Positions 2,105 through 46,661 of a stretch of 64,000 bases of DNA are shown piece after piece. This DNA comes from Escherichia coli (GTDB lineage Bacteria; Pseudomonadota; Gammaproteobacteria; Enterobacterales; Enterobacteriaceae). Numbering within the stretch: the stretch's first letter is position 1; every line of letters starts with the position of its first letter. The stretch is from the NCBI RefSeq assembly GCF_011045215.1, contig NZ_CP049202.1; one strand, written 5' to 3'. The translations under genes were made by a program, and so were the position numbers. Under the pieces are notes generated by a model, which saw nothing but the letters and a program-made list of their open reading frames with translations, was not told where the DNA came from and ran no database searches.

Positions 2105-2395
2105 TCAATAGACTGCGTGAATATCGATGGTTGCACCACATGCCTGAGCATATCTTGTCAAAGTTTTCATACTGGCTCCTAAAGGATTACTTTCCAGCCG
2201 GCTGATGGCTGACGGGCGTACCCCCATTCGTTCGGCCAGCGCTGACTTTGTTAACCCCGCTTTTTCTCTCATTTCGTACAACATTTCTACCATCTCCAGT
2301 TCTTTATCGGCATCTTCATAGCCTTTGACAGCTTCCGGAGTATTAAGCAGTTTTTGCTTTACCTGGCTGAACGGAACACCTTTTACTTTCATCAT
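2105..2395 (-). CDS. higA: HigA-like antitoxin, XRE-family helix-turn-helix
   Basis: 96 aa with C-terminal HTH (LTKSALAERMGVRPSAISRLE); 4-bp overlap with the upstream toxin gene. Confidence 0.7.
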   Translation of the reverse strand: MMKVKGVPFSQVKQKLLNTPEAVKGYEDADKELEMVEMLYEMREKAGLTKSALAERMGVRPSAISRLESNPLGASMKTLTRYAQACGATIDIHAVY

Positions 2396-2703
2396 TTCAT
2401 CTCCTTCAGGCGCATCCTGGCGATTTCAATAGCTTTTGTTGGTGTCTTTTGCGTCTTTTTCACAAATGCATGCAGCAGATAGATTTCATTACCCGTTGCA
2501 TAAGCGTACAGTGTCCTTGCGACATTTTTATCCCCGACTCTCAGTTCAAAAAGTCCTCCACCAATTACACGGCTGTGAGGCATTTTCATTTTATTGCCTT
2601 CCTGTTCCAGCCGTTCAATCAATCTGGCCATGCGACCACGTAGATTATCTGGTAATTCAATCAACTCATTCAGTGCGGCCGGGTGAGTAATCACATTAAA
2701 CAT
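2392..2703 (-). CDS. higB: HigB-like toxin (RelE/ParE superfamily), toxin-first operon
   Basis: Start at internal ATG 2703 with GGAGG Shine-Dalgarno; about 103 aa; toxin-upstream/antitoxin-downstream order typical of higBA. Confidence 0.65.
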   Translation of the reverse strand: MFNVITHPAALNELIELPDNLRGRMARLIERLEQEGNKMKMPHSRVIGGGLFELRVGDKNVARTLYAYATGNEIYLLHAFVKKTQKTPTKAIEIARMRLKEMK

Positions 2704-2800
2704 ATTATAGCCTCCGAAAGGATAAAATACATCAGAACAGGAAAATTGCACAAATATAAAATTTCACTGATAAGTGAAACACATGTTAAGTACAGTTTTG

Positions 2801-2913
2801 ATGCCGCGTCAGCGGCATGGAAGGCGGCACTCCGTTGTAGCATATGGCGCAGGAGTAAAACCGCCGAAGCCCGGCGTAAGCCGATACTGATTGATAGATT
2901 TCACCTTACCCAT
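2801..2913. repeat. conserved ~115-bp structured element, copy A (second copy at 34460-34582)
   Basis: 38-bp and about 57-bp blocks nearly identical to copy B, separated by an 18-bp variable segment; begins with hairpin TGCCGC-GTCA-GCGGCA. Confidence 0.6.
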
Positions 2914-3057
2914 CCCCGGCCCTTGTATGTAATAGGACTCGATGGCTAGCTACCATCATATGAAGCAGAGTGAGCTTGTCCCAGCCCTGAACAGTCAGAC
3001 TTTGATTAGCAGCAAAAGCCCTCTGCTGTAAGCGTCAACGGAGCACCGTATTGACGC

Positions 3058-4650
3058 TTATTTATTGGTGAGAACCACGTTCCATGGCAGGAGTTCGTCA
3101 ACACGGTTGGAGGGCCATTCCGGCAGTACGCTCAGAATATGGCGCAGATACGCTTCCGGATCGATACCGTTCAGACGGCAGGTGCCGATCAGCCCGTATA
3201 GCAGTGCACCACGCTCGCCGCCGTGATCGCTACCGAAGAACACGTAATTTTTCTTTCCAAGACAGACTGCACGAAGCGCTCTTTCCGCTGTGTTATTGTC
3301 CGTCTCCGCCAGTCCGTCATCACTGTAATAACAGAGGGCGTCCCACTGATTCAGTACATAGCTGAACGCTTCGCCCAGTCTGGATTTTTTCGACAGCGTG
3401 CCATTCTTCTCCACCATCCATTCATGCAGCGACGTCAGTAACGCTTTGCTTCGCTGCTGTCTGACTGCAAGACGCTCTGACTCTGGTAATCCCCGTATCT
3501 CATCCTCGATGGCGTACAGTTCACTGATTCGCTTCAGGGCTTCTTCTGCCGTCGCACTTTTGCTGCTGATGTATACATCGTGGATTTTTCTCCGGGCATG
3601 GGCCCAGCACGCAACTTCTGTCAGCGCACCACCTTCACGTTCTGCACTGAACAGCCTGTCATAACCTGTGAACGCATCCGCCTGCAGGATACCCCGGAAG
3701 GGGCGGAGGTGTTGCTCCGGGTGTTTCCCCTGCCGGTTCGGTGAGTACGCGAACCAGACCGCCGGAGGAGATGACGAACCCGCATTGCGATCATCCCGGA
3801 CATACGTCCAGATGCGCCCTGTTTTCGTCTTTTTCAGGCCCGGTGCCAGTACCTTTACCGGTGTGTCGTCAGTGTGAAGCTTGCGGGTATTCATCACATA
3901 ACGGTACAGGGCATCATTCAGCGGTGTCATTAACTGGCAGCACGCGTCAACCCAGTTGGAGAGTAATGCACGGCTCAGTTCGACACCCTGTCGGGCAAAG
4001 ATTTCACTCTGACGATACAGTGGCAGGTGTTCGCAGTATTTTCCCGTTAACACGCGGGCAAGTAATCCGGGGCCCGCGATACCACGCTCTATCGGGCGGG
4101 ACGGCGCCGGTGCTTCAACGATGCAGTCACATTTTATACAGGCTTTTTTTACCCGTTCTGTGCGGATCACTTTCAGGGCGCTGCTCACCAGTTCCAGTTG
4201 TTCTGCACTGACTTCCCCCAGATAATCCAGCTCACCGCCACACTCCGGGCAACAGCTTTCTTCAGACTCCAGACGCTGTATTTCACGGGGAAGGTGTGCC
4301 GGTAACGGACGACGATGGCGCGACTGTCGCAACTGGCGGGGAACCTGTGGATCGTCTTCCCGCCCACTGTAACGATCGCTGTCCTGTTCGCGTTGTTTCA
4401 GCAGGGCCTCAGCCTGTTCAACTTCACGACGCAGTTTTTCAGAACGGGTACCGAACAGCATCCGGCGCAGTTTTTCTATCTGAGCCCGCAGATGTTCTAT
4501 TTCCCGTTCATCTTCTTCGATCTTTTCTTCGGCACGTGCCAGTGCAGAGCGCAGGAAGGCCTCCGTCTCTTCAACCAGACTCAGTTGCTGGTCTTTCTGG
4601 CGGAGCTGGCTTTCCAGTTCTGCAATGCGAATGAGGTATTTCTGACTCAT
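3058..4650 (-). CDS. tnpC: IS66-family transposase TnpC
   Basis: 530 aa; leucine-zipper N-terminus, CxxC zinc motifs, KYxEHLPLYRQ motif, DDE region, C-terminal LPWN. Confidence 0.9.
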   Translation of the reverse strand: MSQKYLIRIAELESQLRQKDQQLSLVEETEAFLRSALARAEEKIEEDEREIEHLRAQIEKLRRMLFGTRSEKLRREVEQAEALLKQREQDSDRYSGREDDPQVPRQLRQSRHRRPLPAHLPREIQRLESEESCCPECGGELDYLGEVSAEQLELVSSALKVIRTERVKKACIKCDCIVEAPAPSRPIERGIAGPGLLARVLTGKYCEHLPLYRQSEIFARQGVELSRALLSNWVDACCQLMTPLNDALYRYVMNTRKLHTDDTPVKVLAPGLKKTKTGRIWTYVRDDRNAGSSSPPAVWFAYSPNRQGKHPEQHLRPFRGILQADAFTGYDRLFSAEREGGALTEVACWAHARRKIHDVYISSKSATAEEALKRISELYAIEDEIRGLPESERLAVRQQRSKALLTSLHEWMVEKNGTLSKKSRLGEAFSYVLNQWDALCYYSDDGLAETDNNTAERALRAVCLGKKNYVFFGSDHGGERGALLYGLIGTCRLNGIDPEAYLRHILSVLPEWPSNRVDELLPWNVVLTNK

Positions 4651-4680: not shown

Positions 4681-5031
4681 TTACAACATTGTCAGTGAGT
4701 TAAGGCGGGATGTTTTTGGCTGACGCCAGTCCAGCTTATCGAGGAGCATTGCCAGTTGCGAACGGGTAATGGATACCTTGCCGTCACGTACCGCAGGCCA
4801 GATAAACTGGCCTTCCTCCAGGCGTTTGGTGAACAGGCACAGACCATCAGCATCAGCCCAAAGAATTTTAACGGTGTCACCCCGTCGGCCACGGAAGATA
4901 AACAGGTGACCGGAGAAGGGATTAACATTTAACACATGCTGTACCTGTTCACCCAGCCCGTTGAAAGACTTACGCATATCGGTTATCCCGGCAACGAGCC
5001 AGATACGGGTACCGGATGGGAGTGAGATCAT
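4681..5031 (-). CDS. tnpB: IS66-family TnpB (Orf2)
   Basis: 116 aa, conserved IS66 Orf2 sequence (WLVAGITDMR...LFIFRGRRGD). Confidence 0.9.
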   Translation of the reverse strand: MISLPSGTRIWLVAGITDMRKSFNGLGEQVQHVLNVNPFSGHLFIFRGRRGDTVKILWADADGLCLFTKRLEEGQFIWPAVRDGKVSITRSQLAMLLDKLDWRQPKTSRLNSLTML

Positions 5032-6209: not shown

Positions 6210-7781
6210 TTACTGAGAGCTCAGATCAACTTTCCAGGGCAACAGATCGCGTACCCGGTTTGCCGGCCAGTCCTGGATATGTTCAATGACGTAACGCAGC
6301 CACTTTTCTGGCTCCACATTGTTCAGACGGCATGTGCCGATCAGCGAGTACAACACCGCCGCATGTTCACCACCGCTGTCGGAACCCGCGAACATCCAGT
6401 TTTTCCGGCCTACGGCCACTCCCCGTAAGGCGTTCTCTGCGATGTTGTTGTCGATTTCCACCCAGCCATTACTGCAGTACACGTTCAGTGCATCCCACTG
6501 TTTCAGCAGGTATGCGAACGCTTTTGCCGTATCTGAGTGACGCGACAGTGTTTTCATCTGTTGCTGTATCCAGTCATACAGTGACTGCATCAGTGGCGCG
6601 GCTCTGGCTTTTCTTGCCGCCAGACGCTGTTCTGCTGAACAGCCCCGGACCTCTGCCTCGATGGCATACAGTTCACCGATACGCTGCAGGGCTTCCGTGG
6701 TGATGTAGGTGGGCGCTCTTGCATGCACATCGTGGATTTTTCTCCGGGCATGAGCCATACACGCGGCTTCCGTTATTCTGCCGGATTCGTATAACGCCCG
6801 GTAACCACCGTAAGCATCGGCCTGAAGCACACCGCTGTAACCGGCCAGGTGATTTTGTGGATGGATACCTTTCCGGTCCGGACTGTACGCGAACCAGACC
6901 GCCGGGGGCATCTGTGAACCGGCGTTACGGTCATCACGGACGTAGACCCACAGCCGGGCTGTCCGGGTTTTACCGCTGCCCGGCTCCTGGACCGGGACGG
7001 GGATATCATCGGCATGGAATTTACCGGGCATCAGCACATACTGGCGCAGTACGTCATACAGCGGCTCCAGCAGTTCAGCAACAGCACCTGTCCAGCGCCC
7101 CAGTGTGGCACGGCTCAGCTCCACTCCCTGACGACGGTATATTTCTGACTGGCGGTATAACGGCAGATGGTCTGCATATTTCCCGGTGACAACATGGGCC
7201 AGAAGCCCCGCTCCGGCATAACTGCGTGCAATGGGTTTTGAAGGTACTGGTGCCTGCACGATATGGTCGCACCGGCAACAGGCCTGTTTCGGACGTTGTG
7301 TTTCGATAACCTTAAAGGCGCTGCTGATAAGCTCCAGTTGCTCTGACACATCACATCCCAGAGAACTGAGTTCACCACCACAGGCAGGACAGCATTCCTC
7401 TTCCGGCCGGATAACCCGGGTTTCACGGGGAAGTGAGGCCGGTAACGGTTTACGGGCTGAAGACTGGCGCAGGGCGGATGGCAGTACCGGGTCATATTGC
7501 TCACCCAGCGTTTCCGCCATTTCTTCCTGAAGTGCGCTGATTCGCTCCTGTGCTTCCTGTATCTGCCGTTCGGTTTTTGCACGAAGTTTTTCTGAGCTTT
7601 TACCGAACTGCATACGTTGCAGTTTCGCAACCAGCGCCTTCAGCCGGTTGATTTCGGAAGCATAAGCCGCCACCCGCTGTGAGAGCAGGCGGTTGTATTC
7701 AGCCATCTGGCGGATGGTGTCCTGTTGCGTCTGCAACAGTGCCCGCAGGCGGGCGTTCTCATGAGCAAGTGAGGTGTCCAT
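6210..7781 (-). CDS. tnpC: IS66-family transposase TnpC
   Basis: 523 aa, colinear with the copy 1 TnpC ([12 protein letters not shown]-terminal LPWK). Confidence 0.9.
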
Positions 7782-10605: not shown

Positions 10606-12575
<1,970 letters not shown>

Positions 12576-33846: not shown

Positions 33847-34140
33847 TTATTTCATTCGCTCACTGGCAATATTATAAACGTTACACCGCTCTCGTTTCCC
33901 TACAGCAATCACCCATATAACAATTTCTTCATCAATGACCTTATAAATAAGCCTAAACCCAGATGCTCTCAGTTTTATTTTAAAACATCCAGCTAGATCA
34001 CCATGAAGCCTGGCAGCACCAGTGTAAGGATTATGCTGTAGTTTTCTGAGTTTCTTTTTAAACTGGTCACGTATTGTCTTGTCCAGCTTATTCCACTCTT
34101 TAAGGGCCCTTTCGTCAAAGTCGATATTAAAGGTCATCAA
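33847..34140 (-). CDS. relE: RelE-family toxin
   Basis: 97 aa; ...FDERALKEWNKLDKTIRDQFKKKL...CFKIKLRASGFRLIYKVIDEEIVIWVIAVGKRER close to E. coli RelE as recalled. Confidence 0.8.
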   Translation of the reverse strand: MMTFNIDFDERALKEWNKLDKTIRDQFKKKLRKLQHNPYTGAARLHGDLAGCFKIKLRASGFRLIYKVIDEEIVIWVIAVGKRERCNVYNIASERMK

Positions 34141-34381
34141 TATTCACCCTGATGCGTCTGGCAGGATTTTTCAGTCGTTCTCTGACAATATTCAGAATAT
34201 CTTCGTCCTCATCATTATCACTGACAACAACAGACACTTCATTGAAAGGGAGTTTTTCATTTTCAGCGACATAACGGAGAAAAAGGCGGAGAGCTTCTGA
34301 AGGTGAAAGATTGAGCTTTTCGAAGACCTGCCAGGCATTTTTCTTCAGTTCTTCATCGACACGAATTTGAACAGTACTCAT
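34127..34381 (-). CDS. relB: RelB-family antitoxin
   Basis: Start ATG 34381 with GGAG Shine-Dalgarno; MSTVQIRVDEELKKNAWQVFEKLNLSPSEALRLFL...; overlaps relE start. Confidence 0.75.
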   Translation of the reverse strand: MSTVQIRVDEELKKNAWQVFEKLNLSPSEALRLFLRYVAENEKLPFNEVSVVVSDNDEDEDILNIVRERLKNPARRIRVNIDDL

Positions 34382-34459
34382 GATAATACTCCGGTAATAA
34401 AGTATGCAGGCAGTATATACGTGAACAGATGTAATGACAAATGTATTGACATGTGACCT

Positions 34460-34582
34460 ATGCCGCGTCAGCGGCATGGAAGGCGGCACTCCGTTGTTTC
34501 ATGTGATACTGGTGTAAAACCGCCGAAGCCCGGCGTAAGCCGGTACTGATTGACAGATTTCACCTTACCCATCCCCAGCCCT
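34460..34582. repeat. conserved ~115-bp structured element, copy B (copy A at 2801-2913)
   Basis: See copy A; lies 79 bp upstream of the relB start. Confidence 0.6.
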
Positions 34583-34779
34583 GCCAGACTATACCCGCTT
34601 TCAGCTATGAGAGAGCTTCTGTGCGCGGTCGGAGTGGTCCCGACGAGGGTTTACCCGAAGTCGGGGCGTATCTCCGCGTTAGCGGGCCGTCAGGGCCGCT
34701 TACGAGCGTGTACACGATACGTCCAGCCAGAAGACTGACAGCGATGATGATGTAGTTACAACATTCATAATTAAAAGCG

Positions 34780-35258
34780 ACTCTGTTCCGGCCCTTTGGG
34801 CCGGGGCGGGGCCGCTTTTCAGTTATGAGGGATGGGCACGGTGTTTCAGAACTGTGTCTGTCGGGGCCCGCCGCTTGCGGTGGGAGGTGCTTTTAAATTC
34901 TGAGCGGCGCGGCTTTGGCCGCTGCAAGCGAAGGCCTTTTTGTATTTGTTCATAGACGTTTCAGAGATAAAGACTTTCCCTGCGGTGGAACAACGCAGGG
35001 GATTAAATGAAGGGGGTAAGACTATATTGCAGGTTTGCTGTTTCAGGTTTGCAGCTTCTTAAAGTTCTTTGTTTGCGGATTTATGTGGATAACTGAAACG
35101 ACGTGGCCACGTTCTGACGACCGGTGAGAGATTTTATGGCCGTGTATGGACGGATGTGGGGATTTCAGGTGGTTACGGGGGATTTCTGGCCGGACAGAAC
35201 CTGCGCCAAAAGCCCCGAAGGGGCTGGCGATGATTCAGTGCTGAAGGAATGGTGTTGT
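34780..35258 (-). other. oriR: IncFII-type vegetative origin region (oriR-like), immediately downstream of repA
   Basis: Position downstream of repA as in R100/R1; GC-rich dyads and DnaA box present. Confidence 0.45.
35084..35092 (-). promoter_or_regulatory. DnaA box (TTATCCACA on minus strand)
   Basis: Exact consensus 9-mer, 167 bp downstream of the repA stop. Confidence 0.5.
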
Positions 35259-36281
35259 CTAGTGCGGTGGCGGGGCAGCCAGCGTCAGTTCAAGCTGACG
35301 CAACTCCCTGATGGCCAGTCGCTTCAGATGGTCATCGGAACAAAAATAGGCTTCATCCGGCGGCAGACGCTTCCTGAGATACTCTGCCATCTCATGAATC
35401 TGCTGGTCGGCAGGCAGTTTCTTCAGGCGATTAGCACGCTTACAGGCTGCAGCTTTCGCCCGACGGTGTTTCAGCGCATCCTGGCTGCGCTGCAGATACC
35501 AGCGTTTTCTGGCCGCATGTACGGAGATATCTTCATCCTCACGCAGTACACCTTCCCGGATGAGCTGCTGGCGGATTTCACTTTCACGCAGCCGCTTCTG
35601 CTGCTGTTCGTGAAGTTTAACCATATCGACGCCCAGCATCTGCCACCCTGCCGGTGTTATCCAGACATAGCGCGGCAGACGCTGGCGGGTTTCACGGTCC
35701 CACATCGTTTCTTCCGACACACCCAGCACACCAAAACGTACCTGTTCGGTCAGCAGACGGGAAAGCCGGGAGACCGTCACTTCCAGTTCCGGAATAACCT
35801 TCCCCTTGCTGTCTTTCGGGCTGATTTCTCTGGCCAGACGGGAAACACTCATGCCTACGGTATGTGTGCCCGCATCACTGAAGCTGACCAGAACCGGCCA
35901 GATGGCATCGAGGAGGCGTTGTTTTTCCGGACGGAAAGCATATTTGCGACCGGCGAACGTCCGTTTCTGCACGTAAAAAGGATGCAGAGACATGTGCATG
36001 CGCAGGCTCTGTTCGCCAGTCACCGGGTCCTTTTTCACCAGGCGGTGATAAGCGTGCCCAAGCTGCCCGCTCAGCGCCTTATAGCGCGCAGGACGATACC
36101 AGGTCGGATTTTCGCATTTGGGTTTAGTGGAGTGCTCACCACGACGACGCTTTGTGCGCTTCCTTTCCGGTTCAACCAGGAAAGTGGTCGCCCTTCCCGC
36201 TTCATAATCTTCCCAGAAACGGATTTGCTCTTCGGGAGGCAACTGAGCCCAGTGGCCTGGACGGGTATTTTTAATCACCAT
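35259..36281 (-). CDS. repA: replication initiator RepA (IncFII RepA superfamily), about 340 aa
   Basis: ATG 36281; internal blocks align with R100 RepA1 ([13 protein letters not shown] / [25 protein letters not shown] / ITRATRALTFLSE); basic C-terminus; oriR and DnaA box downstream. Confidence 0.7.
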
Positions 36282-36888: not shown

Positions 36889-36981
36889 ATAGCTGAATTG
36901 TTGGCTATACGGTTTTTAGATGGCCCCGGTAATCTTTCTAGCTCGCCAAAGTTAAAGAAGATTATCGGGGTTTTCACTTTT
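36889..36981 (+). ncRNA. copA: CopA-like antisense RNA (replication copy-number control)
   Basis: About 92 nt between the promoter and a U-tract; 13-bp stem CCCCGGUAAUCUU/AAGAUUAUCGGGG with a loop containing CGCCAAA; position between repA2 and repA1 as in IncFII. Confidence 0.55.
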
Positions 36982-37362: not shown

Positions 37363-37432
37363 CTCGCCTCCTCAATACTCAAACAGGGATCGTTTCGCAG
37401 AGGATACTACAGTTTTTTTTAATCAGCGACTT

Positions 37433-37563
37433 GAAAGTTGTGACGATGACATGTGTTGGCGCACAAATCATGTCTGATTACGACCGTTTAATGTGATTTT
37501 GATAATGAAATGACTGAAAAGCAGGAAATGCCTTAACCTGTGTGCCCCCGGGCGGGGCTGGCG
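37433..37563. repeat. about 130-bp direct repeat, copy 1 (repA2 upstream region)
   Basis: About 90 percent identical to 38553-38676; the two copies bracket the GNAT/RHH toxin-antitoxin module. Confidence 0.7.
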
Positions 37564-37669: not shown

Positions 37670-38152
37670 TCAGACTTTATAAAATAAGGTGTCAGGTGCC
37701 ACAACTGACTGGACAAAACCAAAACGCTCATAAAACGCTCTGGCGTCATCATCAATTGCATGCACCATAACCGCCTTAACGCCAACCTGTTCAGCCACAT
37801 TTACAACCCGGTGAATAGCATCACTCAGCAGCCATTTACCGAAACCATGCCCCTGGGTACAAACATCAACAGCCAGACGCCCTAACAGAACAACAGGAAC
37901 AGGATTAGGCATGTTATGCCGCAAACTGCGCCCAAGCTCGGCATGTGTGACGGAACCCGTAGCTAATGAGTAGAACCCCACAACACGTAAAGTCCCCTCC
38001 AGGCAAATAACGAACGTGCGGGAAGCATTGAGCATCTGGTTTTTCATAGCCCGACCACGTAACCAGTTACTTAGCACCTCATTTCCACAGTCAAATGGCT
38101 GAAGTATATGCTCATCCGTCAGCAATGCCGGCGCGGTGACATTTATTTCCAT
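37670..38152 (-). CDS. GNAT-family acetyltransferase toxin (TacT/KacT/AtaT-like)
   Basis: 160 aa GNAT fold motifs (...LGRLAVDVCTQGHGFGKWLL...); overlaps the upstream RHH antitoxin gene by 10 bp. Confidence 0.75.
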   Translation of the reverse strand: MEINVTAPALLTDEHILQPFDCGNEVLSNWLRGRAMKNQMLNASRTFVICLEGTLRVVGFYSLATGSVTHAELGRSLRHNMPNPVPVVLLGRLAVDVCTQGHGFGKWLLSDAIHRVVNVAEQVGVKAVMVHAIDDDARAFYERFGFVQSVVAPDTLFYKV

Positions 38153-38433
38153 TCAGGCTTTACCGCCATCAGACGTTCACGCCCTTCTGCATTCTGCACA
38201 GGAGCTTCCAGTTGCGTAATAAACGAATCATAACGTTCGTTATCCAGCACAAATAAGCGTTGATCCAGGATAATGTTTTTAGCTTCCTGGTAAGCCAGTT
38301 CAATGATGAAATCAGTACGGTTCTTATTGACCAGGCTCGCAGCATAATCAATAACGGCTCGTTCCTCATCAGTTGCCCGGATGTTAATCTGGTTTTCTCG
38401 CGGTGTTTTACGGACGCTTGCAGCTGTAGACAT
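38143..38433 (-). CDS. DUF1778-type RHH antitoxin (TacA/KacA-like)
   Basis: ATG 38433 with GAGG Shine-Dalgarno; about 96 aa; ...INIRATDEERAVIDYAASL... Confidence 0.7.
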   Translation of the reverse strand: MSTAASVRKTPRENQINIRATDEERAVIDYAASLVNKNRTDFIIELAYQEAKNIILDQRLFVLDNERYDSFITQLEAPVQNAEGRERLMAVKPEWK

Positions 38434-38552
38434 AAAAACCTCAATTGGTAACAATTTGCTATACAATTAATGTTATCGCAAATGGTAACAAAACGCTATA
38501 CAAAATCACTTACGGGAAAAGTGATCACTGATAAAAACAATGACAGAGGCCT

Positions 38553-38676
38553 GAAAATTGTGACGATGATATATGCTGGCGCACAAATCATGTCTGATTA
38601 CGACCGTTTAATGTGATTTCGATAATGAAATAACTGAAAAGCAGGAAATGCCTTAACCTGTGTGCCGGCCCCGGGC
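38553..38676. repeat. about 130-bp direct repeat, copy 2 (upstream of the toxin-antitoxin module)
   Basis: See 37433-37563. Confidence 0.7.
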
Positions 38677-38765: not shown

Positions 38766-38915
38766 TTACTTCCGTGCTTCGTAGGCCAGAGTTATCTGCA
38801 CCACTGTATTTCTCCTGTGAATATTCAGCTCACACAACCGTTCCCTGAATATCAGTGAAAAACACAACAACGTGGCGCACACAGCGAGCAACCCTATAAG
38901 GGCATATTTCGTCAT
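38766..38915 (-). CDS. srnB: Hok/Gef/SrnB-family type I toxin (49 aa)
   Basis: MTKYALIGLLAVCATLLCFSLIFRERLCELNIHRRNTVVQITLAYEARK: one transmembrane helix plus conserved LCEL; GAGAGG Shine-Dalgarno; in-frame upstream extension from 38972 resembles a mok/srnB-prime reading frame. Confidence 0.75.
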   Translation of the reverse strand: MTKYALIGLLAVCATLLCFSLIFRERLCELNIHRRNTVVQITLAYEARK

Positions 38916-39260
38916 AAACTTTGACCTCTCTGCAAGGAAGAGGCTACAATCAGTAGTGTTAAGGTACTTCATGCAGACCTCACGAGTTAATGGATTAACG
39001 AGTGGGGTCTTCGCATTTCTGGTACCTGCGTCTTGCCTGAACCAGAAAGGCTCAGACACCCGCAGCGATAATACCACATTCCCGTTTGCCGGCCATGTAC
39101 CTGCATTTTCCGGTTATTATTATAAAAACGCCGGGGACGGGGAAAATTTGCTTTTTCCCGTTTCCGGGGTTGGACAACTGAGCAACGCGAAGGCGTCAGT
39201 TATTTCTGTTTATTACATTCTTCTGTATATTTTCTTTTTACAATTCGACACTGCCTTATC

Positions 39261-39470
39261 TCACCTGACATATGCCCAGACCTCTTTGGGAACTCTGTCA
39301 TATAACCTGTTCATCGTTAATTCAGCAAGACGGTGGTCTGCTGCTGAATTGAAGGCCTCACGCTCACTGTCCGGTAAATCATAGGTGTTCTTACAGATAA
39401 TCTTTTCCAGTGTATTCACCGATGAACACCGCCGTAACTGATATAACCATTCCTGTTTTGTTTTCGCCAT
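39261..39470 (-). CDS. hypothetical protein (69 aa)
   Basis: ORF between the hok-like gene and finO; no family recognised. Confidence 0.3.
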   Translation of the reverse strand: MAKTKQEWLYQLRRCSSVNTLEKIICKNTYDLPDSEREAFNSAADHRLAELTMNRLYDRVPKEVWAYVR

Positions 39471-44300: not shown

Positions 44301-46661
44301 CTTCGCACTGTCGCTGACGGAATGCCCGGGCGTTTCCACCCAGCCGTTCTCCAGCTTCAGTGCCGTGAACGGTGAATCAGCCACAGGCAGGGTGGCCGGT
44401 TCAGCCCGCCCCGGCACAACAACCGTCATCGCATCTTCACTGACGGATGCCACCTGCAGGCGGTCACCGCCGGAGACGCGGAGTCCGGGGATTTGTCCCG
44501 TCACCCTCAGACGCTCGCCGTCTGCCACCGGCATTTTTTCCGGCCGGAACAGCGACCAGCTGCTGTCCAGAGAAGAAATACGCACCACCTGCGTTTCACC
44601 CTGCGCATCCCGCAGGGTCAGGCTGTGACTCTGCGCCGTCACCCGGTCTATCACATAGCGGTCATGACTGCGTGTCTCCGGGTTCCACTGCTCCATCACC
44701 ATCCCCGGGCGGTACATATCCCGCAGATAACGGCTCCGGCTGTCCAGCCAGACCGGTGACAGGGCGGTCATGGTTACTTCCGGGTGTCCGAGCACGCCCT
44801 GTGTTTTCAGCTCACTGCGAATGGCCTGTGTCAGTATGGCCTGTTCCCGTACCCCGCTGACCTGTGCCACGCTCTCTTCTCCGGCTTTCACGCTGGCCGC
44901 AAAATCTCCTGCCAGCCGGGCATAGCGGACATTACGGTCCGGTTCACTGATGATGGTGGCCGGTCGCTGTTCTCCCCCCAGCCAGCGATATGTGTTCACC
45001 CCGGCATCCTTCATGGCCATCAGCGCACTGCCTGTACCGGTTCGCTGCCCGCTGTCGGTTATCAGGACCTGTACGTTATGACGTGCGGCACCGTCCAGCA
45101 GGGTTAACGTCTCTTTCAGGGAGAGTTTTTCGCCCTGGTCAACGATAACAGTACTGCCCGGCGTGAAGGCCATGCCTTCCAGCAACTGACGACGTCCGGT
45201 TATCAGCTCACCGGACAGCCGTTCATCCTGCTTCAGGTTCATCTGCGAGCGACGGTCAGCAGCGATAATCTGCACTTCCCGCCCCTGCTCCCGGGCCATC
45301 ATGACCAGTTCAGCCACCCGCTCACGCTGCCCGGCTGCACCGCCCTGCCCGGACACAATGGCCAGCGACGGACGGTCCTGTGCCAGAACACTGACCGCAT
45401 CGCTGTAACCAGCCGTCCGGGGGACACTTTTCTCCGGATGTACGGTCACCCGGTTCTGTTTCATGATGTCACGACTGAGTGCCCGGACGGACAGCTCATC
45501 GAGCACATGAATTCCTGATGTGAACAGCCCCTTCTCACGGTCGAGGGGGATGAGTTGCTCACGACTGATGGCCTCATCGATACCGGCGCGTGCCCGTTCA
45601 ATCACACCATTTTCCGGCGGCAGTATACCGACCGTTCTGGCCAGCACGTCCGTATACGTGAACTGCACTTTTCGTTCACTTAATCCGGCAATGGCCTGTG
45701 TCACCGCCTGCTGCACATCCGGCCCCTCCAGTGAAACAGCCCCGGGCGCCTGCGTGCGGGTCTCTGCCCGTTGCTCCGCCGCGTCACGATACGCCCGGAT
45801 ATCGAACCCGGTTTCCTTCAGTGTCTGCATCCACTCGGTCATTTTGATTTCAGGATCGACGTGCTGTTTGGATTTTCGCGTATCCAGTGCTGCCACATCC
45901 CGGGATTTCAGCGAGGCGTCTTCCCCGACGGCCTCCCTGATAGCCTGCGAACGACTGGAAAAGGCCTCCACCGGTACGCCCGGCATCTCCCACATCCCGT
46001 GCTTACCGACCACTTCGGTTTCATAGCCCAGCGCCTCAACCTGCTCTTTCAGCTTTTCCCGGTAGAGTCTGCCAAAGGCAATCTGATTAGCGTACACATT
46101 CTCAATGAACCCTGTTTTTCCCACTTTGTCACTGCTCAGTGTCTTCCACTCGCCGTTATGCTGTGTAACATTGGCCACCACCGCATGCGTGTGTAACTGT
46201 GGTTCCTGATCGCGACTGGTGTCGTGATTAAAAAGCGCCATCACCAGATTACCGGTCAGCACCGTTTCTGACTGTCCGTCCGTCATAACCCGTGTGGAGG
46301 CCAGCGCCTCCACCTGACGGACAGCAAAATCCACGGCCTGGTTATGTGCATCAATAAGACGTTTATCACCGCCTAACATGGCCATCACGGAGACACTTTT
46401 GGGGGCGGAGAAGGTCAGGTCGTAGCCGGGACGATGCTTATTACTGCCATCCTGCATGCGGCTTAAATCCGCTCCGTCCGGCAGCCTGCCCTCCAGAAGA
46501 CGGGTAAAAACATCCTTATCGACACTGCCCTGCAGCCCCAGCTGTTCAGCCCCCCTGCCGGCCCAGCGTTCTCCCATGCTGCCCAGCACATAGTAATTAT
46601 CCTTGTCGGTATAATAGTTACCGGCACTTCCGGCCGATCTGACCTGCGCGATACTCATCAT
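41391..46661 (-). CDS. traI: TraI relaxase-helicase
   Basis: 1756 aa; N-terminal relaxase domain, two helicase Walker A motifs (GYAGVGKT), F-type length. Confidence 0.95.
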   Translation of the reverse strand: MMSIAQVRSAGSAGNYYTDKDNYYVLGSMGERWAGRGAEQLGLQGSVDKDVFTRLLEGRLPDGADLSRMQDGSNKHRPGYDLTFSAPKSVSVMAMLGGDKRLIDAHNQAVDFAVRQVEALASTRVMTDGQSETVLTGNLVMALFNHDTSRDQEPQLHTHAVVANVTQHNGEWKTLSSDKVGKTGFIENVYANQIAFGRLYREKLKEQVEALGYETEVVGKHGMWEMPGVPVEAFSSRSQAIREAVGEDASLKSRDVAALDTRKSKQHVDPEIKMTEWMQTLKETGFDIRAYRDAAEQRAETRTQAPGAVSLEGPDVQQAVTQAIAGLSERKVQFTYTDVLARTVGILPPENGVIERARAGIDEAISREQLIPLDREKGLFTSGIHVLDELSVRALSRDIMKQNRVTVHPEKSVPRTAGYSDAVSVLAQDRPSLAIVSGQGGAAGQRERVAELVMMAREQGREVQIIAADRRSQMNLKQDERLSGELITGRRQLLEGMAFTPGSTVIVDQGEKLSLKETLTLLDGAARHNVQVLITDSGQRTGTGSALMAMKDAGVNTYRWLGGEQRPATIISEPDRNVRYARLAGDFAASVKAGEESVAQVSGVREQAILTQAIRSELKTQGVLGHPEVTMTALSPVWLDSRSRYLRDMYRPGMVMEQWNPETRSHDRYVIDRVTAQSHSLTLRDAQGETQVVRISSLDSSWSLFRPEKMPVADGERLRVTGQIPGLRVSGGDRLQVASVSEDAMTVVVPGRAEPATLPVADSPFTALKLENGWVETPGHSVSDSAKVFASVTQMAMDNATLNGLARSGRDVRLYSSLDETRTAEKLARHPSFTVVSEQIKARAGETSLETAISHQKSALHTPAQQAIHLALPVVESKNLAFSHVDLLTEAKSFAAEGTSFADLGREIDAQIKRGDLLHVDVAKGYGTDLLVSRASYEAEKSIIRHILEGKEAVTPLMERVPGELMEKLTSGQRAATRMILETSDRFTVVQGYAGVGKTTQFRAVMSAVNMLPESERPRVVGLGPTHRAVGEMRSAGVDAQTLASFLHDTQLQQRSGETPDFSNTLFLLDESSMVGNTDMARAYALIAAGGGRAVASGDTDQLQAIAPGQPFRLQQTRSAADVAIMKEIVRQTPELREAVYSLINRDVERALSGLESVKPSQVPRQEGAWVPEHSVTEFSHSQEAKLAEAQQKAMLKGEAFPDIPMTLYEAIVRDYTGRTPEAREQTLIVTHLNEDRRVLNSMIHDAREKAGELGKEQVMVPVLNTANIRDGELRRLSTWETHRDALVLVDNVYHRIAGISKGDGLITLQDAEGNTRLISPREAVAEGVTLYTPDTIRVGTGDRMRFTKSDRERGYVANSVWTVTAVSGDSVTLSDGLQTRVIRPGQEQAEQHIDLAYAITAHGAQGASETFAIALEGTEGGRKQMAGFESAYVALSRMKQHVQVYTDDRQGWTDAINNAVQKGTAHDVLEPKADREVMNAERLFSTARELRDVAAGRAVLRQAGLAGGDSPARFIAPGRKYPQPYVALPAFDRNGKSAGIWLNPLTTDDGNGLRGFSGEGRVKGSGDAQFVALQGSRNGESLLADNMQDGVRIARDNPDSGVVVRIAGEGRPWNPGAITGGRVWGDIPDNSVQPGAGNGEPVTAEVLAQRQAEEAIRRETERRADEIVRKMAENKPDLPDGKTEQAVREIAGQERDRAAITEREAALPESVLREPQRVREAVREVARENLLQERLQQMERDMVRDLQKEKTLGGD

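Follow-up and report, generated by a model that had tools for sequence, protein, structure and literature searches.

Why should a short stretch of DNA stand between a toxin-antitoxin operon and the origin of an IncFII-type replicon, and why does it recur elsewhere in the same Escherichia coli plasmid? A preliminary description of this locus, within a window of 64,000 nucleotides (the whole stretch of DNA analyzed here), had taken it for the second copy of an element of about 115 bp that may mark where the basic replicon meets its stability module. Our analysis places it in a feature that is already known, as the distal end of the IncFII repA4 region. We further propose this element, with a probability that we put at about three in four, as the primase-dependent G site at which leading-strand synthesis would start; the match to the mapped site rests on published distances.

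Results

Two copies of a 123-nt sequence

A repeat search of the window revealed a two-copy direct repeat of 123 nt, at 2801-2923 (copy A) and 34460-34582 (copy B), both on the + strand; the length first given was slightly short. The copies are identical at 112 of 123 positions (91%) without a gap, and the pair reaches an E value of 2.7e-45 in a local BLASTN search inside the window, so that the resemblance is not a short chance match. When the copies were aligned together with 100 nt of flanking sequence, the similarity ended abruptly on both sides. Eight of the 11 differences fall at element positions 38-57, and the remainder of the element is nearly identical.

As had been described, copy B lies between the relB promoter region and the IncFII origin. 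On its left is the relBE toxin-antitoxin operon (33847..34381, - strand), identified by profile hits for relB (34127-34381; NF008412, 120.7 bits, cutoff 96) and relE (33847-34140; TIGR02385, above cutoff), with a predicted sigma-70-like promoter at 34440-34412, 20 nt from copy B. On its right follow a Ter-like site, the DnaA box of oriR (TTATCCACA, 35084..35092, - strand; found as a motif and also conserved in the R100 alignment), the gene for the IncFII replication initiator, repA1 (35259..36116, - strand; NF040977, 315.4 bits, cutoff 70), and CopA RNA (36889-36979). Further to the right, a second, unrelated 123-nt direct repeat (37424-37546 and 38544-38666; 93% identical, and about 135 nt long when aligned) encloses an insertion of ~1 kb that has the copB side of the replicon on one flank and hok/sok on the other, with sok at 38905-39061. 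This insert holds a GNAT-like open reading frame (ORF) (37670-38152, - strand) preceded by a 107-aa ORF (38143-38466, - strand), an order typical of TacA/TacT-type toxin-antitoxin pairs.

The outer end of a conserved replicon block

Copy B makes up the outer 123 bp of an unbroken stretch of ~400 bp, conserved from 34460 to ~34885 and known in R100 as the "repA4 region." From 34460 to ~34870 the window is ~96% identical to R100 and collinear with it, directly downstream of the R100 origin, and over its own 123 nt copy B is 95% identical and occupies the same place. Homology to R100, as to other IncFII replicons, begins at the foot of the hairpin that we call hairpin 1, to the nucleotide. Leftward of copy B, R100 is unrelated: it carries tir and pemI/pemK where the window has relBE, which bears out the earlier remark that a toxin-antitoxin locus sits at the equivalent position of R100. 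Rightward of the block, oriR and repA1 are diverged alleles relative to those of R100.

A 3.5-kb query around copy B matched at least 5,000 plasmids, with matches beginning at window positions 34455-34460. The 123-mer itself is present in at least 5,000 PLSDB plasmids and at 7,731 places in 4,017 of 5,426 complete E. coli genomes, with up to 10 places per genome; 7,655 of these places (99%) are on plasmids, and the other 76 are chromosomal, presumably in integrated F-like plasmids. In a BLAST-based profile of per-position conservation across 84 distinct loci, the alignable fraction jumps from 0.08 to 0.92 at 34460, stays at 0.8-1.0 to ~34834, and is then patchy (0.45-0.70) to ~34885. The oriR and repA1 sequences are alignable in only ~22% of the same loci, the other ~78% having diverged beyond the reach of BLASTN. 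A degenerate pattern, run on genome and metagenome collections to gather sequence variants, retrieved 142 copies with 94 distinct 123-mers among them; the pattern fixes 21 positions at 34541-34566, which inflates the conservation seen there. A scan of genome contigs contributed only 10 loci, and most of these were plasmid contigs assigned to unrelated metagenome-assembled genomes (MAGs) by binning; one metagenome hit (L126) was discarded as a chance match to the pattern.

Might this conservation be that of a protein gene? R100 carries a repA4 ORF of 128 aa (45033-45419 in record L004), and "replication-associated protein RepA4" is a recent RefSeq/PGAP name for an ORF that overlaps the element, as expected if the element were conserved only as the 3' end of that gene. 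The overlap, however, covers only 23 of the 123 nt (locus L001), the ORF is frameshifted in L001, and in the window it is not intact, with no minus-strand ORF of at least 50 aa in the block; the DNA is still 96% identical. A second form of this explanation, in which the segment is a small mobile element (MITE), would account for two copies in one plasmid and for multiple places in single genomes, but there are no inverted ends or target-site duplications, 99% of the places are on plasmids beside IncFII repA, and truncation of a second replicon accounts for copy A (see below). Conservation as a gene end or as a MITE is, in our judgment, barely credible. Because the block is conserved in 80 to 100% of the 84 loci while the repA4 ORF is broken or frameshifted, the conserved unit is, on the evidence of its sequence, a cis-acting block of about 400 bp with the element as its distal end, and not a conserved gene.

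The rest of the block (34583..34885), delimited by the conservation profile, includes a Ter-like site (TAGTTACAACAT, core at 34755-34762). Set against the repA4 region of NR1/R100, of which copy B corresponds to the distal end, the arrangement is alike in that the region also holds one or more Ter sites and is needed for stable inheritance; TraDIS on pEC958 showed that the repA4 region is required for stable maintenance of the R100-type replicon (PMC4398462). It is unlike in that the repA4 reading frame is not conserved in the window, where there is a single Ter core as opposed to the three GTTGTAAC cores of R100.

A sharp left junction with exchangeable toxin-antitoxin modules

The 200 bp to the left of 133 sampled copies fell into 31 unrelated clusters, and the 400 bp to the right formed one dominant cluster that comprised 102 of 121 copies. 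In about 27 of the 31 left contexts, divergence sets in within 0 to 3 nt of the foot of hairpin 1. Toxin-antitoxin modules adjoin at least 84 of the 133 copies (at least 63%), as left neighbors of several kinds: RelB-like/RelE (26 copies), tir with PemIK (19 copies), CopG/RelE-ParE as in pO157 (19 copies), Phd-YefM/RelE (10 copies), HigBA-like (5 copies), Doc (3 copies), and RelBE as in the window (2 copies). A further 11 copies lie beside a probable ParE-like pair. In one related replicon, hok stands flush against a partial element. This replicon (L010; NZ_CP122506.1, 2501-2653) has a 328-aa RepA and retains only the start-proximal half of the element (GCGTAAGCCGGTACTG onwards) with the block that follows; the hok/mok gene is fused directly to its left, and hairpins 1 and 2 are absent.

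The simplest reason for so sharp a boundary is that the last essential cis-acting site of the replicon ends at hairpin 1. Different toxin-antitoxin modules would abut the hairpin because the DNA to its left lies outside the replicon and would be freely exchanged. The same observations might be taken to mean that the segment, or hairpin 1 by itself, is a recombination site or hotspot for the swapping of stability cassettes, and so a true junction element instead of a priming signal. The position of most left breakpoints at the hairpin foot and the frequency of toxin-antitoxin neighbors would fit this, as would the right end of the element, at nt 123/124, which is the apparent programmed target of an IS110-family element (see below). 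But no recombinase travels with the segment, no terminal inverted repeats or target duplications surround the 123 bp, and conservation continues rightward into the replicon in 102 of 121 copies; sharp edges are moreover expected wherever an essential cis-acting site meets dispensable DNA, and recombination at this point would also be compatible with G-site function. We therefore regard a dedicated recombination site as very improbable. The proposal that the element marks a junction holds, for this plasmid family as a whole, insofar as the left edge of copy B is a replicon boundary, with 31 kinds of left neighbor that are mostly toxin-antitoxin modules; it does not hold for a discrete element, the 123 bp being part of the longer block.

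Hairpins followed by TACTG

As single-stranded DNA, the + strand of the element folds into three hairpins followed by TACTG, with z-scores of -2.2 for copy B, -2.7 for R100, and -1.2 for copy A, which are modest values for copies B and A. Hairpin 1 (34460..34477, + strand; ATGCCGC-GTCA-GCGGCAT) has a 7-bp stem and a 4-nt loop, and the conserved block has its edge at the 5' foot of this hairpin. Among 90 distinct copies it occurs in 13 variants; nine are loop variants with the stem kept, one shows a double compensatory change (ATGTCGC..GCGACAT), and a symmetric loss of 1 bp in both arms (ATGCGC..GCGCAT) is found in 18 of the 90 copies.

Hairpin 2 (34482..34524, + strand), placed by the single-stranded fold and by its variants, combines an invariant outer stem (GGCGG/CCGCC) with a variable interior that contains the eight clustered differences between copies A and B. 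An inner stem was considered for this interior and rejected, as its pairings shift register between variants and show no covariation. Because five loci carry a natural 21-nt deletion that removes its 3' arm, hairpin 2 is probably dispensable. These loci (L020, L051, L068, L118, and L129) are metagenome or MAG contigs, and the 21 nt missing from their element variant lie between two CCGG repeats.

Hairpin 3 (34530..34543, + strand; CCGGC-GTAA-GCCGG) was predicted in the single-stranded folds of both copy B and R100 and ends two nucleotides 5' of a CTG. Its loop is GTAA, GTCA, or GCCA, and one compensatory stem variant (CCCGC..GCGGG) occurs among the 90 distinct copies. The CTG (34546..34548, + strand), which lies within TACTG, is the predicted primase initiation trinucleotide, judged by its likeness to the phage G4 origin and by its distance from the origin in R100; a highly conserved tail of 34 nt follows TACTG. 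Stems that are kept, loops that vary, and compensated changes in hairpins 1 and 3 suggest that selection acts on structure, with the covariation resting on few independent events, the sequence being so conserved.

Stable GC-rich hairpins, one with a GNRA-type loop, together with a relB -35 box 20 nt from hairpin 1, could instead point to an element that acts as RNA, which might separate the replicon from the toxin-antitoxin promoter as a transcription terminator or insulator, or might form the structured 3' end of repA-side transcripts. A terminator would require a T run, and none follows hairpin 1 or hairpin 3 on either strand; a terminator scan gave a single weak hit (5 bp, within hairpin 2), which is no more than shuffled sequences produce. 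The RNA fold z-scores of the element range from -0.6 to -1.7, and Rfam 15 contained no matching family for the element, at the gathering threshold or at E values up to 10, the only hit being 19-bit noise elsewhere in the block. The left neighbors, and hence any promoter, also vary between plasmids. To an RNA function we accordingly attach very little credence, and we continue to treat the element as one that would act as single-stranded DNA.

Copy A and the insertion sequences beside it

In copy A the CTG is retained (2887-2889), but the basal pair of hairpin 3 is replaced by a C/A mismatch (GCCGA). Beside it lie an ORF for a RelE/ParE-like toxin (2392-2706, - strand), which gave no NCBIfam hit and whose homologue is annotated as RelE/ParE family in public records, and one for an HTH antitoxin (2105-2395, - strand), recognized by hits to antitoxin-type HTH profiles; the toxin precedes the antitoxin (2105..2706, - strand), which is the higBA order. 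A stretch of 823 bp comprising toxin, antitoxin, and element (2101-2923) is 94% identical to pUTAK-5-1, in which the pair and the element continue into a complete replicon of repA4, oriR, and an IncFII-family repA. The homology to pUTAK-5-1 ends at 2923, and the rest of this second replicon is absent from the window. As far as its sequence tells, copy A (2801..2923, + strand) is thus the orphaned end of a second IncFII/FIC-type replicon with its own higBA-like module, wrecked by insertion sequences.

Directly after copy A comes a relic of 104 bp (2924..3027, + strand) that represents the left end of an IS110-family element and is 99% identical to a copy in metagenome contig L059. The full element in L059 is 1,475 bp long (11035-12509), and its transposase, of the DEDD type, matches the profile NF033542, "IS110 family RNA-guided transposase" (205.5 bits, cutoff 140). 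The junction in L059 (CCCAGCCCT followed by TGTATG) is identical to that in the window but joins another element variant with another toxin-antitoxin pair, so that the same left junction is seen with two different element variants. A CT core is present at both junctions in L059, and excision of the IS110 element with one copy of the core restores the canonical block. The junction was first found in L059 and then in plasmids, with the full insertion sequence as the query: a query made up of the IS110 element plus its flank was covered to at least 80% in 108 PLSDB plasmids. No PLSDB record joins the element to window positions 2924-3027 over at least 80% of a 428-nt query. As a continuation of the right flank of copy A, pISV_IncFII_NDM-5 (H66) was rejected, since it holds only the element and pieces of IS66.

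Within its noncoding left end, the IS110 element carries CCCAGCCCTG (2980-2989 in the relic), which equals the left target flank plus core in the sense orientation; this is an exact match of 10 nt, with ~0.004 expected by chance. Sixteen nucleotides after it, TTAGCAG (3006-3012) is the reverse complement of the core plus right flank. By analogy, this is the arrangement expected of the target loop of a bridge RNA, and the element looks as if it were programmed to hit the conserved IncF replication block. It resembles bridge-RNA-guided IS110 elements of the IS621 type in its transposase, in the CT core, and in the sense left-flank and antisense right-flank matches, a likeness judged from the sequences. 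A feature with no known counterpart in IS621-type elements is an internal, diverged copy of the element's own target region: inside the IS110 element of L059 (12221-12385) lies a diverged copy (80-86%) of the whole 123-bp element plus ~40 nt of the following block. It overlaps the last ~10 codons of the transposase gene and forms an uninterrupted pseudotarget with a changed CTG (GGTACGTATTGA).

In the window, the relic is interrupted by an IS66-family element (3028..4650, - strand) with its GTAAGCG end at 3028 and a transposase ORF at 3058-4650. The order of events would then be that an IS110-family element inserted site-specifically after nt 123 and that an IS66-family element subsequently hit this insertion sequence. 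The repeat is 123 bp long because the replicon boundary sets its left end and the IS110 insertion after nt 123 sets its right end. In the loci with the 21-nt deletion, homology to the repA4 block stops 9 nt past the element (between GCCAGACCA and GTGGGGGC), which makes this a second recurrent right-hand breakpoint near the IS110 target.

A candidate primase-dependent G site

A primase-dependent G site, a single-strand initiation signal of the G4 type, is known for the IncFII plasmids R1, R100, and pSY343, which belong to the same plasmid family as the replicon of the window. Replication of R1 and R100 is unidirectional and proceeds away from repA. The hairpins and CTG are on the + strand and repA1 is on the - strand; since replication would thus run leftwards, the + strand would be the leading-strand template. 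Miyazaki (in 1988), Masai and Arai (in 1989), and Bernander (in 1992) are said to have placed the leading-strand start, a G site used by primase alone, 380 to 400 bp downstream of oriR, and Jiang (in 1993) reportedly placed it in repA4 near its 3' end, with repA4 itself starting immediately after the origin. In R100 the complement of the CTG (CAG; 45431-45433 in L004) and the DnaA box are 586 bp apart; relative to the repA4 ORF, the CAG falls ~400 nt beyond the start (45033) and 13 nt beyond the stop (45419). In the window the CTG is 537 to 545 bp from the DnaA box. The predicted start thus lies 13 nt outside the R100 ORF, as against the reported location within repA4.

The G site of R100, R1, and pSY343 and the element are alike in plasmid family, in place, in the use of the leading-strand template, and in having hairpins followed by CTG. 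According to Tanaka (1994), the G site reportedly consists of two essential domains that flank a dispensable one, with conserved blocks A, B, and C, and the element likewise has two conserved parts around a variable, dispensable middle. We noted no sequence difference from the IncFII G site for copy B; copy A differs as an orphan unlinked to an origin and in the mismatch of hairpin 3.

The G4 origin of complementary-strand synthesis (oric) offers a second comparison. Used as a control (NC_001420), it showed three hairpins and then CTACTG, and the record annotates the start of the RNA primer at that CTG. Both sites have three hairpins on the template strand with (C)TACTG 2 to 3 nt later, and both carry a GNRA-type loop on the start-proximal hairpin (GAAA in G4 and GTAA in copy B). 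In contrast to G4, the stems of copy B are shorter and its fold is less extreme (z = -2.2 versus -4.7), and G4 uses its site to convert single-stranded phage DNA to the replicative form, whereas copy B would serve theta replication of a plasmid. A BLASTN search of window positions 34400-34800 against 50,697 phage records, with E values up to 10, gave short chance hits only and no similarity to G4 or another phage. The resemblance to G4 is one of architecture together with the pentamer TACTG.

Of the alternatives considered, the one that bears most directly on the G-site assignment is that another part of the repA4 block holds the G site, the 123 bp being a different kind of cis-acting replication site, for instance one for PriA-type primosome assembly or part of a fork-arrest region. 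Further strong and equally conserved hairpins at 34610-34700 would be candidates, R1 derivatives with two single-strand initiation (ssi) signals have been reported, and the match to the mapped G site depends on published distances. However, no other + strand hairpin of the block has a CTG after it, the hairpins at 34610-34700 are only 260 to 350 bp past the R100 origin compared with the reported 380 to 400 bp, and the G4-like series of three hairpins and then TACTG is found only in the 123-bp segment. We consider this alternative unlikely; the main residual doubt about the element as the G site is accordingly that the mapped site might be a neighboring part of the repA4 block.

F-like ssi sequences are separate loci with only block-wise similarity to the element. 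One paper places ssiA upstream of F oriV-2/repE, and by eye this region has a hairpin and then ACTACTG. In R100 (L004, ~4795-4942, - strand) and in F (L006, ~15385-15532, - strand), a paralogue collinear with the element is found just 3' of the SLT/orf169 gene, close to oriT and on the strand that is transferred. It shares an identical hairpin 1 followed by GGAAGGC, TCATATGA, GCCGAAGCCC with a compensated hairpin (CCCGC-AAA-GCGGG in R100), and CCTGCCAGACCAT, and its CTG candidate (GGTAACTG) is ~25 nt further from the hairpin. For the leading regions of F and R100, ssi signals have been reported, and this paralogue may be one of them. F itself has no full copy of the element, because its RepFIC replicon is truncated. 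In F (L005, 39266-39380), CATACGCCGGTACTGCTTCGTCAGATTGCAC (39349-39380) stands ~80 nt beyond a DnaA box (TTATCCACA, reverse strand) and is 81% identical over 32 nt to GCCGGTACTGATTGACAGATTTCAC from the start region of the element; a further priming site or origin near RepFIB may have left this stretch behind.

Discussion

The identity with R100, the extent of the block, the pattern of its left junctions, the conservation of the hairpins, and the insertion sequence junctions were all observed directly. On this basis, we propose that the element has its role at the birth of the leading strand. RepA and DnaA would open oriR, and a helicase would unwind the DNA leftwards, exposing the + strand. 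The exposed strand may then fold into the three hairpins, with the element acting as single-stranded DNA, and the host primase (DnaG) would recognize this signal directly and begin the leading-strand primer at the CTG at 34546-34548, with the start opposite T34547 and the primer running leftwards through hairpin 3. Recognition by primase and the exact start nucleotide are the parts of this scheme that we infer.

Both copies lie opposite the tra genes, as indicated by an antisense-to-traG RNA on the + strand, and the + strand is taken to be the transferred strand because of this orientation. We speculate that this position would allow each copy to serve as a priming site for the complementary strand in the conjugation recipient as well. 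A bolder and rather doubtful extension is that the 123-nt unit is a minimal, self-contained priming module delimited by two breakpoints that recur. Stability and toxin-antitoxin cassettes would be actively exchanged at the foot of hairpin 1, perhaps through template switching or strand invasion at the birthplace of the leading strand; nt 123/124 would be the programmed target of a bridge-RNA-guided IS110-family element that seeks out IncF replicons; and orphan copies would be kept for priming in the recipient.

For IncF plasmids more widely, this stretch is left unannotated or labeled "hypothetical protein" or "RepA4" in thousands of records, and the best label for it would be a cis-acting replication site at the replicon boundary. 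The near-universal presence of swappable toxin-antitoxin modules flush against that boundary may merit a specialist look, as may an IS110-family element with guide-like matches to a site in the conserved IncF replication block. The exact end of the block at hairpin 1 provides a landmark for delimiting IncFII replicons and for spotting the relics of lost replicons, such as copy A.
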